From positions 1,056,001 to 1,120,000 of the forward strand of contig CM000153.2 in the NCBI GenBank assembly GCA_000004695.1: DNA of 64,000 nt, read 5' to 3'. The notes under the pieces are model-generated. The model did not search any database, had not been told where the DNA came from, and was given only the letters and a program-made list of their open reading frames with translations. Source of the DNA: Dictyostelium discoideum (Eukaryota). Made by a program: the position numbers and the translations under genes. Shown here in pieces: positions 4,450-14,600 of this stretch (its first letter is position 1; every line of letters begins with the position of its first letter).

Positions 4450-6283
4450 ATGGACACATTTACAATTGAAGAAATAGTGAAATTTGATGGTGGTGGTGGT
4501 GGTATATCAACAATTAATAGTAATAATGACAATATTGGTATACCAAGTAATACCTTTGAAATGATAATATCAACTATTCAACACTTTTTAGATAGATCAT
4601 CATCAGTAGCATCAACGATTGCAGTATTTGTATTATCATTTATATTATTTTTTATGTTTGGTTGGTTTTATTTCTTAAAGATATTATTTAGAGATTATGA
4701 AGTTAAAAAAGTTTTTGTTCAATTATCATTCTCAATTACTTTTGCATTATCATTAACATTATTTGAACTTATTTTCTTTGAAATTATGGATTTTATGGAT
4801 AGAGAGTAAATTTTTTTTTAAAAATCACATAAAAAAAAATATATTTATATTAATTTTATTAATTTTTTTTTTTTTTTATTTTTTTTTTTTTTAAAAAAAA
4901 AAAAGATGGAGATATAGATTTTGGGAATTTGATTTAACATTAATGTCAATTAATTTAATTTTAGTATTACCATATTATCAATTTTATTTATTAGTTTTAG
5001 CATATGGATTTAGTAAGAGGAAAACATTATTTTTTAGTTTAGTACTATTGGTATTATATTTAATTTTATTTTGGAAGATTGGTGATCCATTCCCTATTCT
5101 AAAGGAATATACAGGTTTAGTTTCTTTAGAAATGGGTATTGGTAGAATTGGTATTGTAGGTTGTACTGTAATGTCATTACTATCGGGCTATGGTGCAGTT
5201 TATGTACCTTATAGTTATATCACTTATTTTTTAAAACCTGTAAAAGATGTTACAATTACAAAATTAGAAAAACAATTCAATCATGCTTTAGATAAAATTT
5301 TTAATAAAAAAAAAAGAGTTGTATTATTAAAACGAGAATTAACAAGAAGAAATGTAAATAATAATAATAATAATAATAATAATTATGATACATATAATTA
5401 TAATAACAATTATAATAATAATAGTAATAATAATAATAATAATAATAATAGTAATAATAATAATAATAATAATTTACCAATTATTGGGCCAATATTTTCA
5501 AAAATTTATAATTTATGGAATGTTGGATATCATCATCAATTAAGTAGACCAATTGATGATATTAAACAATTGGAACGAGAAATTAAACAATTAGAAGATT
5601 TAAATCGTGACTTATTCACTCAAATACACGAGTTAAAATTAGAGAGATTAAGAATCCAATTCTCAACAACGCTTCGTGGTAAATTTTATAATTGGTTAGG
5701 TTACTTCTTTTCAATTTATTGTATATATAAAGTAATAATGGTAAGTAGTATATTAACTAAATTGATTATATGTGTATATTAAAAATGTAAATATTTACTA
5801 ACTATTGGAGGGAAAAAAAAGAGTGCATTAAATATAGTTTTCGATAGAAGAGGTGGTATGGATCCAGTTACAAGAGGATTGGATATTGCTTTAAGATATT
5901 TTCATTTTCAAGTTGATGTAACATTTTGGTCTCAACATATATCATTCATTTTGGTTGGTTTAATGACAGCTTCAAGTATTCGTGGTTTTTTAAATCAAAT
6001 TTTAAAGGTATTTCATGAATATTCCAGTAGTTTATCTTCAAATAATATAGTTTTAATATTGGCTCAAGTAATGGGAATGTATTTCATTTCATCAGTTTTA
6101 ATGATGAGAACATCTATGCCTGAAATTTATACAAGATTTATAGTCACTCAGATATTGGGTGATATAGAATTCAGTTTCTATCATCGTTGGTTTGACTTTA
6201 TTTTTATACCAAGTGCAATTATCACAACATTAGCATTGATATTCATGTCTAAATCAAGTACTTTCCACTTAAATGATGAATAA
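4450..6283 (+). CDS. Golgi pH regulator / GPR89 (ABA_GPCR family) multi-pass membrane protein; 3 exons approx 4450-4805, 4915-5740, 5822-6283
   Basis: The three ORFs 4450-4809, 4943-5782 and 5858-6283 join through GTAAAT...TATAG and GTAAGT...AAAAG introns. The product includes ...YFLKILFRDYEVKKVFVQLSFSITFALSLTLFELIFFEIMDFMDRE/FCWEFDLTLMSINLILVLPYYQFYLLV...GYGAVYVPYSY...LERLRIQFSTTLRGKFYNWLGYFFSIYCIYKVIM/SALNIVFDRRGGMDPVTRGLDIALRYFHFQVDVTFWSQHISFILVG... This is collinear with human GPR89 (...NIVFDRVGKTDPVTRG...FWSQHISFILVG...FYHRWFD). An Asn-rich insert ([17 protein letters not shown]...) is typical of Dictyostelium. Confidence 0.8.
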
Positions 6284-6603: not shown

Positions 6604-6763
6604 ATGTCAGAGGATAAATCAGGATCATTTTACTCAATGTATAAATTATGTGGTCAACTTGAGAAAGAGTCATCACATTCTGGTAAAACACAATTGATAA
6701 AATCATTTTGTAATGTTTTTAAGTATGTTGATTAAAATTATATTTTTATTAATTTAATAATTG

Positions 6764-6802
<39 letters not shown>

Positions 6803-9800
6803 TAACTATTTATTATTATTATTTTTATAAAATAAAAAAAAAAAAAAAAGAGGGGATTTATATCTATTAGCAAAATTAATGTTATGTAAAGAAGATAAAA
6901 GAGTATTTAGAATAAAAGATAAGGCAATGTTAAAAATTTGTTCACATATTTGGGATTGTGATTTAGATGATATGATTGAAGATTTAGATAATGGTGATTT
7001 CACTGAAACTTGTAAAAAAGTAAAATACTTTCAATTCTTTTTTAAAATTTTTTTAAATTTATTTTTTAAATATATTAATATTAATATTTTTTTTTATTTT
7101 TTTTTTTAGTTTTATATAGAATATGGTAAATATCCAGAAAAAAGTACATTAACATTAAAAGAAGTTGACCAAGTATTGGATTCTTTAACAGTATCAGGTA
7201 AATTTGAAGATCAAGTAAAAATTATAAATAAATTATTGAAAAGATGTACACCATTCGATTTTAGATTAGTTTGTAGAATTATTGATAGTGATTTAAAAAT
7301 AAATACTGGTGCAAAATTCTTTTTAGATGCATTTCACCCCCAAGCATATGATGCATTTAAAAAAGCAAATAATTTAAAAGGTGTAATTGAAAAAATTCAA
7401 CAACATGATTTTGATAATGATAATGGTGATGGCGATGATGGTGATGGTGATGACAATGATGATGATGATGGTGATGGTGATAGTGATAGTGATAAAAAAA
7501 AGAAAAAATCAAGTGGTGGTAGTGGTAGTGATAGTGGTAGTAAGAAAAAAAGCAAATCATTTGAAGTTGCAATTAAATTAATGACACCAATTAAACCAAT
7601 GTTACCAAAAGCAGTTAAAACTGTTGAAGGTGTTGTAAAGAGTAGTGAATGCTTTTATGCAGAGATTAAATATGATGGTGAACGTATTCAAATTCATAAG
7701 GATGGTAATCAGTTTAGTTGTTATTCTCGTAATCTTAAACCATTAATGCCATGGAAAGTGGATGAAGTTAAACCATATATTCCAAAATCAACCAAAGCTC
7801 AACAGATGATATTAGATGGTGAAATACTTTTAATGGATACTAAAACCAGCCAACCTTTGCCATTTGGTACATTAAGTGCCCATAAAAAGAATGGGTTCAA
7901 AGATGCAACGGTTTGTGTGTTCCTATTCGATATTCTATATCTAAATGGTAAGTCATTGATTCATTTACCACTTAAAGAGAGAAGAGAAATCTTGGAAAAG
8001 AATGTAATGGTGGTTAAAAATCGTATTGAGTTCTCTGAGGTGACAATTGTTAATGGTGCCTCTGAGAAATCAAAATTGACGGCATTGTTGAACAGAGTAT
8101 TTAAAGAGAAACTTGAGGGTTTGGTAATCAAAGATGCAATGTCAGAATATGAGCCAGGTTGTAGACATTGGATAAAAATTAAAAAGGATTACATTCACGG
8201 TATGGCTGATAGTGCAGATTTAATTGCAGTTGGCGGTTACTATGGTTCTGGTTCGATGGGTGGTTTGGTAACGGTTTTTTTGATGGTATGTTATGATAAA
8301 CAAAATAAAATCTATAAAACAGTGGTCAAAGCAAGTGGTGGTTTGGATGATAATATGATTGCCAAACTTCAACCAAAAGTCACAAGTACAATGACAAAAA
8401 TTTCAAAAGAAGTTTCAAAGATTCCTTATTGGTTAGATTGTCCAAAGCAATATGCGCCAGATTTCATTGTAAAAGATATTAAACAAGCTATGATATTTGA
8501 AATTGAGTCAGCTGAATTCACTAAAAGTGATCATCATACCACTGGTTATTCAATGCGTTTCCCACGTATTCTCAAAATTAGACATGACAAAGATTATAAA
8601 ACTGCAACAACCCTTGAAGAATTGGTTGAAATTGGTAAAGATATTAAAATTGTTCCAGTTGGTAAAGGTGATAATAATTCACCAACAACTACTACTACAA
8701 CAACTACTACAACAACAACAACTACTTCATCAAAATTAATTAAAAAACAACAATTATCAGATGATGATGATGATAATGATAAAGACTCTAAACAGCAACA
8801 ACAAGAACCATCAAAATTAAAATTTGTTAGTGATGATTTATTAGATCCATTTAATGACAAGTCAGATGATGAATCAAATAAAATATTTATATTGAATTAT
8901 GTTGATAATTCAGGTATTTGGAATGAAAAGGGCTTATCAGGTGCAATTGGTAAGAAATGGCCATCAATCCCAAAATCATTTTCTCAAGGTGATTCAAACA
9001 TTATAAAGAGTGGTGAAATTCGTGTTGAAAAGGTAAAAGATGATTCAATATCAACAAATAAAAAAGTTTTTATTTGTAATCTTTCTTGTATTATCCCACC
9101 AAAATCTAAAAAAGAATCTTATACTTTCTCATTAAAAGAATTTAAATCTGCAATTAAAGAAGCAAAAGGTGCGATCAATCAAAAAAAAGCTTCAGTTCAT
9201 TTAGCAAAACCACAATTCACTTCACCATCTTGGTCTGAACTTGATGAAGTACTAACAAAAGAATTATATAATAGTGGTATTAAAGTATTTGTACATTCAA
9301 TTTCAAAATCATCACCAACTACAACATCACCAACTACAACTTCACCAACTACAACATCACCAAAAATAACATCACCATCATCATCATCATCACCTTCAAA
9401 TAAATTAAGCCCATTAAAAAGAGGAAGAGATGAAAAATTAGAACATGAAATCATTAAAGATATTGAACCATCTTTACCAATATTTGAGGATGTTAATGCT
9501 GTAATTGATAGTAAAACCATTGACCAAGTTGATGTAAAGAGATTAATAAATTCAATTAAAACTATGGGTGGTCGTGTATCAGATAAATGGCAACAAGTTG
9601 GTATTGGGAAAACAACCCATTTAATTTGCAATGGTATGAGCGATCTTTATTTACATGTCGATCGTTTAGGTGGTACAATTGTTTTACCAAATTGGGTTGA
9701 TCAATGTTTTGGTTCAGATAAATTATTACCATTACATGAGGATTATATTTATTTCAATAAAAAAGATCATCCAGATTATTCACAATCATCATCATCATCC

Positions 9801-10349
9801 TCAATGTCAATTGAAGAAGAGAAAATAGTAGTAACTACCACCTCTGATGATCCATCAGAGGGTAATCAACAACAACAGGATAAAAAGGTTATAAAAGAAT
9901 CAAAAATAATTCAATCAAAAGATCATTCTTCAACAACTACTATTGATACAAAAATAACAATTACTTCAACCAATAATAATAATAATGGTAACGATAACAA
10001 CAAAACTAGAAAGAAACAACATCTTTTATCAATTTTCCAAGAATGTATTATATTTTTACATGATAATGTAAATGATAGAGAAACTTTAAAAAGATATATC
10101 ATTGCTTATGGTGGTGATATTTCTGATTCAGTCAATGATAAAACTACTCATTTAGTTGCTTCTCTACCAAATAATTTTTCAAACGTAAAACCAAAAGATC
10201 TTTTTAAATCAATAATTAATAATAATAGTAAAAATAATAATAATAATAATAATAACAATAATAATGGTATAATTGTAAATTCTTTGTGGTTATGGGATTC
10301 AATAAATATGAGTGATCTTTTAGATGTAAAAAATTATAAACTTTTCTAA
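6604..10349 (+). CDS. lig3: ATP-dependent DNA ligase III-like; exons approx 6604-6722, 6851-7019, 7110-10349. DNA-binding domain, adenylation domain (KYDGER), OB fold, a macro-domain-like insert, then two C-terminal BRCT-like domains
   Basis: Exon 1 encodes MSEDKSGSFYSMYKLCGQLEKESSHSGKTQLIKSFCNVF, exon 2 GDLYLLAKLMLCKEDKRVFRIKDKAMLKICSHIWDCDLDDMIEDLDNGDFTETCKK, and exon 3 FYIEYGKYPEK... All are collinear with the human LIG3 DBD (GDVYLTVKLLLPG...NCNPDDMARDLEQGDVSETIRVFFEQ...). The active site ECFYAEIKYDGERIQIHKDGNQFSCYSRNLKP is present. Further conserved motifs are EGLVIKD, RHWIKIKKDY, SMRFPRILKIRHDKD. BRCT-like segments lie near LHVDRLGGTIVLPNWVDQCFGSDKL and at IIVNSLWLWDSINMSDLLDV. No PARP-type zinc finger is found upstream. 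Confidence 0.85.
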
Positions 10350-10870: not shown

Positions 10871-11056
10871 ATGGTAATGATGGAAGGAGTTACCCCACCC
10901 CCAACAGCAAAAGTAATACCATTTTCATTAAAAAAAAAGAAGCCTGCTGCCTTAGTACCAACTACGGCAACTGTGGCAACAACAACAACAACAACAACAA
11001 CAAATTCAACTACGAATCAAAATTCAAATGATAATACACCAGTTGTAATCGAAACA

Positions 11057-11096
<40 letters not shown>

Positions 11097-11238
11097 TTAA
11101 TAATACAACAGAAACTATAGCAACAACCACAGAAACAACAGAAACAACAGCAACAATAGAAAATGATTCACCGACAATTTCATCAGAGAAAATTAAAACA
11201 TCAACTATGGAACCAATAAATCCTGCATCAATAATTTC

Positions 11239-11323
<85 letters not shown>

Positions 11324-11607
11324 AATAATGATACAATAATGAAAAATATTGAAGACGAGGAAGAGGATTTATATACAGATATTACATTTGTTAGTGGACC
11401 TTCTACGAATGTCGAGGCTGAAGATGAACAAGAGGAAGTAGAAAAACAACCACAACAAACACAACCACAACAACAACAACAACAAAGATTGGATATAAAT
11501 AAAAAAACCGATACGAATATAAATGGTGTTATACAAATGGATACAGATTCGAAATCATTGTCGTCATCATCATCATCATCATCTAGATATCAAAAAACAC
11601 CAAAAAA

Positions 11608-11638
<31 letters not shown>

Positions 11639-14600
11639 TCAATAAATAATAAAGCGAACAATGAAGCATTTTTTGATAAAGATTCATTTAAAATAAAACT
11701 ACAGGTTATTAATCCAGAATCATATTCAGAGGAGGAAATTCAAGATATTAATTTAAATTCAGTTACATCTGAAGTTTATATGAATCCAACAACGTTAGGT
11801 GATAAATTACAGCAGCATCAACAACAGCAACATCAAAAACAACAACAAAAACAAAAAAATAAAAATACCACCACCTCCAATAATAATAATAAAAATAAAA
11901 ATAATAATAAAAATCATCATGATCATGCTGGTAGTAAAGATCAAATTAATTCATTAGAGGATGAAAAGAGGTATACACAAAGATATAGATATTTAAAGAG
12001 TAATGAAGAGATATTAAATAAACCAGTTTTTAAAGAGATTGAAGAGAGTCCAATGGCTCCATATAATAAGCCGTCTGGGTATATCATTTACCAAGAGAAA
12101 TCAAGTGAAATGTTACATGATGAGGTTGAATATGATATGGATAGTGAGGATGAAAAATGGTTAGAAGAATTTAATAAAACTACCAATAATAATTATTCTG
12201 AAGATATTTTTGAATATGTTATTGATCGTTTAGAGAAAGAAACTTTTAAATATGTATGTAAACACTTAAATATATATATATATTATATTATTAGGTTTGT
12301 TTATTTTATACTAATATCATTCATTCATTTATTTGTTTATGTAGAAACAAGAGATTGGAAGTGATATGTTTCCACATTTTAGTTCAGTTGAAGCAGATGA
12401 TGTTTGTGGTGTTTGTTTTGATGGTACATCTGATGATACAAATCAAATTGTATATTGTGATGGTTGTGATATAGCAGTGCACCAAGATTGTTATGGTATA
12501 CTATTGATCCCCGAAGGTCATTGGTTTTGTCAAAAATGTGAATCACCAGATAAAGATTCAATTTCATGTGTTTTATGTTTTAAAAAGAATGGTTCTTTCA
12601 AACAAACTATCGATGGTGAATGGGTTCATTTGGTTTGTGCCTATAATATACCAGAACTATCTCAAATTATAAGTAAGTTAAAAAAAAAAAAATAATAAAC
12701 AAAAAAATATTATAATTATCATTATTACGAAATACTAATTATTAATATTATTTTCTATACAAAAAAGAAAAAGGTAGTGGTAGAGAAAAACTTGGTCCCC
12801 CAGGACTACTTAGTAATATTTTAAAGAAAAGAAAGAAATTAAAATGTATTATATGTAAAAAAATAGGTGGTGCTTGCATTCAGTGTCGTGAAAGACATTG
12901 TTCTGTGGCATTTCACCCTTATTGTATAAAAATGAATCAAAAATCAATGATTGATGAAAACTTAAATCCTCATATAATATTTTGTAAAAAACATGTAAGT
13001 ATATATATGATGGTATTACTTTTAATAAAAAAAATAATTAATTTTTTTTTATTTATTTTAGTTTTTAAGAAATAATAATATAAATGGAAATGTTAAAGAT
13101 ATTTTAGATGATGATGGTAGTAGTAGTGATGGTAGTGAAAAAGAAAATAGTAGTGACGATGATGATTATACAGATAGTAGTGATGAACATGATATATCTG
13201 GTGATGATGATAATGATGATGATGATAATGATGACGATAGTTTCGAGGTAATTAAAACGCCCTCTAAAAAATCTCATATTTCAAATAAATCTTCAAAATC
13301 TACACCATCTAAATCTAATACGAATTTAAAATCAAAACCACAACCACCAAAACCAAAGTTAAAATCAAAATCAAAATCTACACCATCTAAAAAAAAGGCA
13401 AATCATAAAAAGAAAAAAAAAAAAATTGATTCAACTGATGAAGATGAAGATAGCAATAATGAAAAAGAGGATGAGAATGAAGAAGATGAAGATGAAGAAG
13501 ATAGCGAAGAAGAAGAAGAAGAGGAAGAGGAAGAGAAAGAAGAAAAAGAAAAAATAAATAATAAAAATAAAAAGAGAAATAATAAAAATAATAAAAATAA
13601 TAATATTATTATTGATGGTAGAAAAAAGAAGAAATTAAAAACAACAGATAGTAATAATAATAAAGTGGCTACTGTCACAGCAAAAGATACAACAACTACA
13701 ACAACTACAACTACAACAACAACAACTACTACATCAACAACTACTACAGGTATTACAGCAAAGAAAGTAGGTTTAATATCATCATCAAGAGCAGCAAAAG
13801 TAATTAGAAAAGTTCCAAGTACATTTGTTCATGCAGTTTATGATTATTGGGTAAAGAAAAGGATATCAAGAAGTGGTTTAGCATTAATTAAAAGATTCCA
13901 ACCATCGATTCTATTTAGTTTGAGATCAACATTACATGCAAAAGATCCAGGTATTAATTCAGTTTCAGATTATAATAAAATGTTATCAATTCGTGAAGAT
14001 TTGGAAAGAACTAGAACCATCTTGGAGTTGGTAAAGAAAAGAGAGAAACAAAAGAGAGAACTAATTATAAATATACGTAATGAAATCGAGTCTACAATAC
14101 TTAATGATTATTACTTTCTTAGAATGGTTTTAAAGAGTTTGGAATCCATTGAACAATTAAGACCTTTCTATGTACCAGTTTTGGAAGAAGAAGCACCTTC
14201 TTACTTTTTAATCATTAAACAACCAATGTCATTTCAACAAATTAAACAATCTCTAAACACTTATGCCTACGAGAATACTGATGACTTTTGGAAAGATATA
14301 ACTTTGATCTATACAAACGCTCAATTATTTAATTGTTCAAAAACTTCAGTTTATAAAGCCTCTCGTTTACTTCAAGAGATTGCTAATAAACTAGAATCTG
14401 ATTGTCCTCCAAAAGTAACCCCTGAAGAATTGGATGACTTTATAAAGAATATTAAATATCCTTCAAAGAAACTTTTAACAACTAATCACAAAAAATTTTC
14501 AACACCATTAAAATCAGTATCATCATCAGTATCATCATCATCATCATCATCAAATACAACAAATACACAGTCAACACCAATAAAAACTACTCCAACTGAA

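Follow-up and report, generated by a model that had tools for sequence, protein, structure and literature searches.

The stretch of Dictyostelium discoideum DNA analysed here (64,000 nucleotides, assembly GCA_000004695.1, contig CM000153.2, positions 1,056,001 to 1,120,000 of the forward strand; hereafter the window, in whose numbering all positions are given) contains lig3, the gene for DNA ligase III (Lig3). The product lacks an N-terminal PARP-type zinc finger and carries, between its OB fold and two C-terminal BRCT domains, a macrodomain of the ALC1-like class. The gene occupies positions 6604..10349 of the plus strand and consists of three exons (6604-6722, 6851-7019, and 7110-10349) separated by two introns (6723-6850 and 7020-7109, plus strand), both with GT..AG borders; the spliced coding sequence is in frame and encodes 1175 amino-acid residues. 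This splice model is supported because the peptides spanning the exon junctions ('...CNVFKGDLYLLAK...' and '...ETCKKFYIEYGKYPEK...') closely match the Dictyostelium purpureum orthologue (P0001). The window is very AT-rich (GC content 13-31%), and its coding tracts contain the poly-Asn, poly-Thr, and poly-Gln runs that are typical of Dictyostelium. An open reading frame on the opposite strand (9197-9631) lies inside the lig3 coding region, is without support, and is regarded as spurious.

The D. discoideum Lig3 protein was absent from the returns of all protein searches, in which the best match was always that of D. purpureum (47-63% identity), and the identity of the locus was therefore set through published primers. 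Primers for disruption of D. discoideum lig3 have been described (Kolb et al., 2017; PMC5622368), and each of the four is found in the window without mismatch, at 5854-5877, 6620-6652 (minus strand), 8791-8812, and 9694-9715 (minus strand). Relative to the ATG at 6604, these sites lie at -749, +49, +2188, and +3112, which fits the offsets given in that paper when the added restriction sites are allowed for. The locus is thus lig3 of D. discoideum, and the start codon that the Kolb et al. laboratory used is the one at 6604. The gene identifier of lig3 is DDB_G0283857 (2021 review; PMC8529158). An insect LIG3 aligns with the ligase core over 528 residues with 38% identity (tblastn, E-value 3e-105). 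The gene codes for an orthologue of DNA ligase III and is treated as the LIG3 orthologue in the literature despite the missing zinc finger.

Lig3 begins with a DNA-binding domain (DNA_ligase_A_N, Pfam PF04675, E-value 9e-32) that comprises residues 9-172 and is encoded across both introns (6628..7337, on the plus strand like all other features of the gene described below). The nucleotidyltransferase (adenylation) domain follows (DNA_ligase_A_M, PF01068, E-value 3e-55; residues 259-454, 7596..8183), with the motif I lysine at Lys283 in 'EIKYDGER' (KxDG), and then the OB-fold domain (DNA_ligase_A_C, PF04679, E-value 2.2e-11; residues 481-590, 8262..8591). A low-complexity linker that is recognizable from its poly-Thr, acidic, and poly-Gln sequence (residues 612-664, 8655..8813) connects the OB fold to the ALC1-class macrodomain (residues 665-826, 8814..9299), which was recognized by profile and fold comparison. 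The stretch upstream of the macrodomain differs in sequence in every orthologue, yet is Thr/Ser- or acid-rich in all of them. Downstream, a Ser/Pro/Thr-rich linker with 'SPTTT' repeats (residues 827-860, 9300..9401) precedes BRCT domain 1 (residues 886-963, 9477..9710; PF00533, E-value 5.9e-7 with the isolated segment), and the protein ends with BRCT domain 2, which is of the LIG3_BRCT type (residues 1068-1173, 10023..10340; PF16759, E-value 3.3e-14 over residues 1068-1162; PF00533, E-value 2e-15) and is broken by a poly-Asn run. In addition, an Asp/Gly/Ser/Lys-rich low-complexity insert ('DNDNGDGDDGDGDDNDDDDGDGDSDSDKKKKK...'; residues 196-246, 7407-7559, plus strand) lies between the DNA-binding and adenylation domains, and comparable inserts of varying length and sequence are present at this position in Lig3 orthologues.

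The identification of the segment between the OB fold and the BRCT domains depends on profile and structure comparisons. When the isolated segment was searched against PDB sequences (phmmer), the sole match was the macrodomain of human CHD1L/ALC1, which was aligned from end to end (E-value 0.015), and a single sequence that included strand beta1 matched CHD1L residues 713-878 with an E-value of 5.6e-4. A profile built from seven dictyostelid Lig3 inserts, without any ALC1 sequence, matched BT1257 (2afc/2fg1; E-value 5e-7), CHD1L/ALC1 (E-value 6e-6), and SCO6735 (E-value 0.029). Addition of five environmental relatives to the profile lowered the E-values for BT1257, CHD1L, and SCO6735 to 6e-28, 1e-18, and 3e-14, respectively, and TARG1 and DarG were then also matched; part of this gain is circular, because one of the added sequences is an ALC1-like remodeller. 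AlphaFold2 gave an unusable model from the single sequence (predicted local distance difference test score, pLDDT, 39.6), which was replaced by a model based on a 12-sequence alignment (pLDDT 91.6; predicted template modelling score, pTM, 0.88). The latter has a three-layer alpha/beta/alpha macro fold with a central mixed beta-sheet, and the leading Foldseek matches to it were SCO6735, BT1257, and ALC1 (E-values 8e-10 to 7e-8 for these three; TMq 0.73-0.75 for ALC1), and DarG. The insert is nearer to ALC1, TARG1, DarG, SCO6735, and BT1257 than to the MacroD, macroH2A, or PARG classes. As judged from the profile matches and the predicted structure, it is a macrodomain of the ALC1-like class (in the sense of Rack et al., 2020), with a similarity that is far beyond chance and is visible only to profile or fold comparison. 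An earlier note on this DNA had proposed a macrodomain between the OB fold and the two BRCT domains, which is borne out by the profile search, the AlphaFold2 model, and Foldseek; the structure prediction that it suggested as a check returned a macro fold whose nearest relatives belong to the ALC1-like class rather than to the MacroD class.

The peptide quoted in the same note is encoded exactly at 8875-9310 (plus strand) in exon 3. These nucleotides correspond to residues 685-830 of the 1175-residue spliced product, and the range of about residues 560-730 that the note had given was incorrect. The interval 8875-9310 covers the rest of the macrodomain but misses strand beta1, as the domain begins about 60 nucleotides upstream, at nucleotide 8814, and both the first strand and a key Asp residue are thus lost when the interval is started at 8875. 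Strand beta1 ('KLKFVSDDLLDP', from about residue 665) aligns with 'SLKYVSGD723VTHP' of ALC1, and 'SKLKFVSDDLLDP' (Lig3 residues 664-676) is paired with 'TSLKYVSGDVTHP' (ALC1 residues 715-727). The key residue is Asp672 (codon 8835..8837, plus strand), which aligns with ALC1 Asp723 and TARG1 Asp20, the Asp of the 'GD' motif that follows beta1; its context is 'FVSDDLLDP', opposite 'YVSGD723VTHP' in ALC1. ALC1 D723A does not bind poly(ADP-ribose) (PAR), and its recruitment to damage is poor (PMC7708043). Gly704, in loop 1 ('EKGLSGAI'; codon 8931..8933, plus strand), aligns with ALC1 Gly750 and is invariant among the 12 aligned relatives. In ALC1, the G750E mutation likewise abolishes PAR binding, and its position, GRG[G>E]LFTA, is confirmed by the published mutagenesis primer (PMC7895907).

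Residues corresponding to the catalytic residues of TARG1 were located in the same way, with a TARG1 sequence identical to that of PDB 2lgr and with reference to the published catalytic mechanism (PMC7050489). The position of catalytic Lys84 of TARG1 is taken by Ile757 in the alignment (codon 9090..9092, plus strand), and it is Ile in all dictyostelid Lig3 proteins and Gln in ALC1 and BT1257. The position of TARG1 Asp125 is Thr in D. discoideum Lig3 and Ser or Pro in its orthologues.

The absence of a PARP-type zinc finger, together with a start directly in the DNA-binding domain, had also been claimed in the earlier note, and is upheld by Pfam, tblastn, and the orthologues. The zf-PARP family (PF00645) was not found by Pfam in the Lig3 protein, and an N-terminal finger is absent because Lig3 starts only 8 residues ahead of the DNA-binding domain. 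A finger encoded in an upstream exon was considered as well. In tblastn across the 64 kb, residues 1-130 of an insect LIG3 that carries PF00645 (P0007) gave only noise (E-value > 2), and the alignment of the full-length insect protein does not begin until its residue 207, past its zinc finger, and at window position 6849, in exon 2. A six-frame scan of the window for CxxC...HxxC yielded a single match, at 12405, where the downstream gene encodes a PHD-type finger. The spacer between the end of the upstream gene (6283) and the lig3 ATG is A/T-rich and only 320 bp long. PF00645 is also absent from the precomputed Pfam lists of the dictyostelid Lig3 orthologues (0 of 6), five of which have a short leader followed by the DNA-binding domain. 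The gene model of the sixth, from Cavenderia fasciculata (P0005), has about 35 extra N-terminal residues, which look like the product of a mis-called start.

The six dictyostelid Lig3 orthologues that were found (D. purpureum, Tieghemostelium lacteum, C. fasciculata, Synstelium polycarpum, and two others) all carry the macrodomain insert. Its identity to the D. purpureum sequence is 62%, vs. 47% over the whole C-terminal 656 residues, and the low-complexity stretches next to it have no conserved sequence among the orthologues. In the S. polycarpum sequence (P0003, EukProt), near 'KINYVINGDDSGKW', the beta1 motif abuts the loop-1 motif, and the stretch between them, including strand beta2, is apparently missing; this gap may be an error of the gene model or assembly rather than a real deletion. 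Neither the domain by itself nor the dictyostelid alignment gave any match in a word-indexed protein search, in which even P0001 was missed, and an exhaustive search of representatives returned six relatives, with P0001 at an E-value of 6e-50.

Related architectures occur in environmental sequences. P0009 (L001:197-1387, plus strand, ENA assembly ERZ27254754), from a non-dictyostelid eukaryote, has a Lig3-type OB fold that is 52% identical to that of insect LIG3, followed by an ALC1-type macrodomain; its open reading frame ends without a BRCT domain and converges on another that was read by eye as a putative serine palmitoyltransferase-like aminotransferase. Two JGI metagenome fragments contain a macrodomain, a BRCT domain, and LIG3_BRCT (P0008), or a macrodomain and LIG3_BRCT (P0012); their N-termini are cut by contig ends, and their C-terminal layout is that of dictyostelid Lig3. 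Because such environmental eukaryotic sequences show related architectures, the fusion of an ALC1-type macrodomain with a Lig3 module is probably wider than Dictyostelia. A further JGI metagenome protein (P0013, 654 residues; in the cluster of P0011) has the C-terminus of an Snf2 helicase, an ALC1-type macrodomain, and a C-terminal LIG3-type BRCT domain (PF16759, E-value 1.9e-11). Judged by its domains, P0013 looks like an ALC1-like remodeller that bears the ligase III kind of BRCT domain, and it hints that a cassette of macrodomain and BRCT domain may have been shuffled between remodellers and ligases.

The upstream neighbour of lig3 (4943-6283, plus strand) encodes a membrane protein homologous to the Golgi pH regulator/ABA_GPCR family (PF12537, PF12430), with an apparent short intron at about 5783-5857 and a long poly-Asn tract. 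The downstream gene (10871-12364 and beyond, plus strand) is very rich in Asn, Thr, and Gln codons and runs into the PHD-type zinc finger at about 12405; this finger ('CGVCFDG...CDGCDIAVHQDCYG...HWFC') is the sole Cys/His finger pattern found in the window and is unrelated to lig3. A tRNA scan of the window found none.

The most plausible reading of this architecture, and one that we consider probable, is that Lig3, which has no zinc finger, uses its ALC1-like macrodomain as a non-catalytic reader of ADP-ribose or PAR that concentrates the ligase at breaks. ADP-ribosyltransferases of Dictyostelium would produce ADP-ribose or PAR at DNA breaks, the macrodomain of Lig3 would bind to this ADP-ribose or PAR without hydrolysing it, and this binding would concentrate Lig3 at the breaks, whereas the LIG3-type C-terminal BRCT domain presumably keeps the interaction with an XRCC1-type partner. 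We thus infer ADP-ribose or PAR binding, a role in recruitment, and compensation for the missing zinc finger. A reader is likelier than a hydrolase because the TARG1 catalytic dyad is absent. In human LIG3 the zinc finger serves mostly to sense nicks, and it is mainly XRCC1 that mediates the PAR-dependent recruitment of the enzyme. For these reasons the macrodomain is not a like-for-like replacement of the finger, and the suggestion in the earlier note that it could replace the finger for PAR-dependent recruitment is only loosely apt.

Several observations weigh against a functional reader. Pfam Macro (PF01661), the search proposed in the earlier note, was run and gave no significant match in the full protein or in the isolated domain, nor in the 12 relatives, of which just one reaches an E-value of 0.065; this failure does not count against the fold, because the model also missed the ALC1-type sequences on which it was tried. 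The AlphaFold2 model is partly dependent on ALC1, because the alignment holds ALC1-like environmental sequences, and lacks strand beta1, because the query began at Asp672. Loop 2 ('AKPQFTSPSW') is two residues shorter than that of ALC1 ('PRIGHATKGFNW') and is without the glycines of the bacterial relatives ('PRIGCGLAGG'). The C. fasciculata orthologue ('TVLGSLTEP') has Ser at the position of Asp672, with the rest of the macrodomain well conserved, and the most divergent orthologue (P0006, 19% identical) has no residue aligned in the Asp672 column. In addition, no published experimental test of the Lig3 macrodomain was found; Gunn et al. (2016) tested APL only.

An unrelated alpha/beta linker with a chance resemblance to the macro signature could account for the silence of Pfam Macro and for the low pLDDT of the single-sequence model, but is refuted by the matches of the dictyostelid profile and by Foldseek, and merits almost no credence. 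A degenerate pseudo-macrodomain, in which the fold is kept and ADP-ribose binding is lost, deserves more weight; the segment would then be a protein interaction surface, or a structured spacer from the ligase core to the BRCT domains. Such a loss is consistent with a loop 2 that, relative to ALC1 and BT1257, is shorter and has no glycines, with the Asp-to-Ser substitution in Cavenderia and the empty Asp672 column of P0006, and with the missing Pfam match. However, Asp672 and Gly704 are both kept in D. discoideum and in most orthologues (Gly704 in all 12 relatives), the domain is under clear constraint, as its 62% identity to D. purpureum stands beside low-complexity flanks without conserved sequence, and ALC1 itself binds PAR with a non-canonical loop 2. 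We therefore consider a loss of binding to be unlikely, though worth bearing in mind.

If ADP-ribose is bound, the domain could still be an eraser, i.e., an ADP-ribosylhydrolase like TARG1, DarG, or SCO6735 that frees DNA ends, bases, or proteins of ADP-ribose and thereby lets the attached ligase seal the break. Among the proteins nearest to it in structure are hydrolases with activity on ADP-ribosylated DNA (DarG, SCO6735) or nucleic-acid ends (TARG1), and the missing dyad is not decisive against this role because SCO6735 is active without either of the TARG1 catalytic residues. Nevertheless, the position of the catalytic lysine of TARG1 and DarG is Ile in every dictyostelid Lig3, that of Asp125 is Thr, Ser, or Pro, and the nearest relative by sequence with a described function is ALC1, a reader for which no hydrolase activity is reported, which makes an eraser very improbable. 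A distinctly speculative arrangement, to which we give a slim chance, is that the macrodomain, like that of ALC1, docks on the catalytic core via the long flexible linkers and keeps the ligase inactive or closed, to release it when oligo-ADP-ribose binds, so that sealing would be gated by ADP-ribosylation; a variant, in which the domain strips ADP-ribose from DNA ends before ligation, is disfavoured because the TARG1 dyad is missing. Recruitment by a non-catalytic reader thus stays the preferred interpretation.

The earlier note was mistaken in its belief that this arrangement had not been described. Using profile hidden Markov models seeded on ADP-ribose-binding macrodomains such as that of ALC1, Gunn et al. 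(2016; J Cell Sci 129:3845, PMC5087659) had screened the proteome of Dictyostelium and listed Lig3 among six macrodomain proteins, as a case that had previously been unannotated, and they noted that vertebrate LIG3 has no macrodomain; the Lig3 macrodomain is restated in the 2021 review (PMC8529158). The arrangement is therefore already known, and its observation in the present DNA is an independent rediscovery. A lig3- strain has been made and was examined for PARP-inhibitor tolerance only (Kolb et al., 2017; PMC5622368). The additions made here are the domain boundaries (residues 665-826), the assignment to the ALC1-like class, the residue equivalences, the six dictyostelid orthologues, and the environmental architectures that combine a macrodomain with LIG3-BRCT; the mapping of Asp672 and Gly704 supplies positions for point mutants. 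Dictyostelium couples repair enzymes straight to ADP-ribose signalling by fused readers, and vertebrates achieve the same with adaptors such as XRCC1; both this principle and the Lig3 example are already in the literature.

Human ALC1/CHD1L is among the closest known counterparts. Its macrodomain (PDB 7enn, 7epu, 7otq, 9t4v) is the best single-sequence match in PDB, over the full length and with about 20% identity; the residues equivalent to Asp723 and Gly750 are conserved in Lig3, and the TARG1 Lys position is non-catalytic in both proteins (Gln in ALC1, Ile in Lig3). The hosts differ, as ALC1 is an Snf2 remodeller, in which the macrodomain also auto-inhibits the ATPase, and Lig3 is a DNA ligase. 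PAR binding has been demonstrated for ALC1, whereas for the Lig3 domain it is predicted from sequence. TARG1/OARD1, DarG, and SCO6735 are hydrolases of the ALC1-like class, and the Lig3 domain lacks the residues corresponding to TARG1 Lys84 and Asp125. Loop 2 is still glycine-rich ('PRIGCGL') in the bacterial protein BT1257 and in TARG1, but not in the Lig3 domain; the PDB entries for BT1257 (2afc/2fg1) describe no function.

Human DNA ligase III-alpha has the same catalytic core as Dictyostelium Lig3 and a C-terminal BRCT domain of the same family (PF16759). The human enzyme combines an N-terminal PARP-type zinc finger with a single BRCT domain, whereas that of Dictyostelium lacks the finger and contains an internal macrodomain and two BRCT domains, the first of which has no counterpart in human LIG3. 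Within Dictyostelium, Ku70, which carries a PBZ domain, and APL, which carries a macrodomain and a PBZ domain, are likewise repair factors fused to ADP-ribose readers that are lacking in their vertebrate orthologues. Binding and recruitment have been shown experimentally for Ku70 and APL (PMC8529158, PMC5087659), and the predicted reader role of Lig3 parallels them. The domain types differ among the three proteins, in that Ku70 has a PBZ zinc finger, APL a circularly permuted macrodomain, and Lig3 a macrodomain of the ALC1 class.

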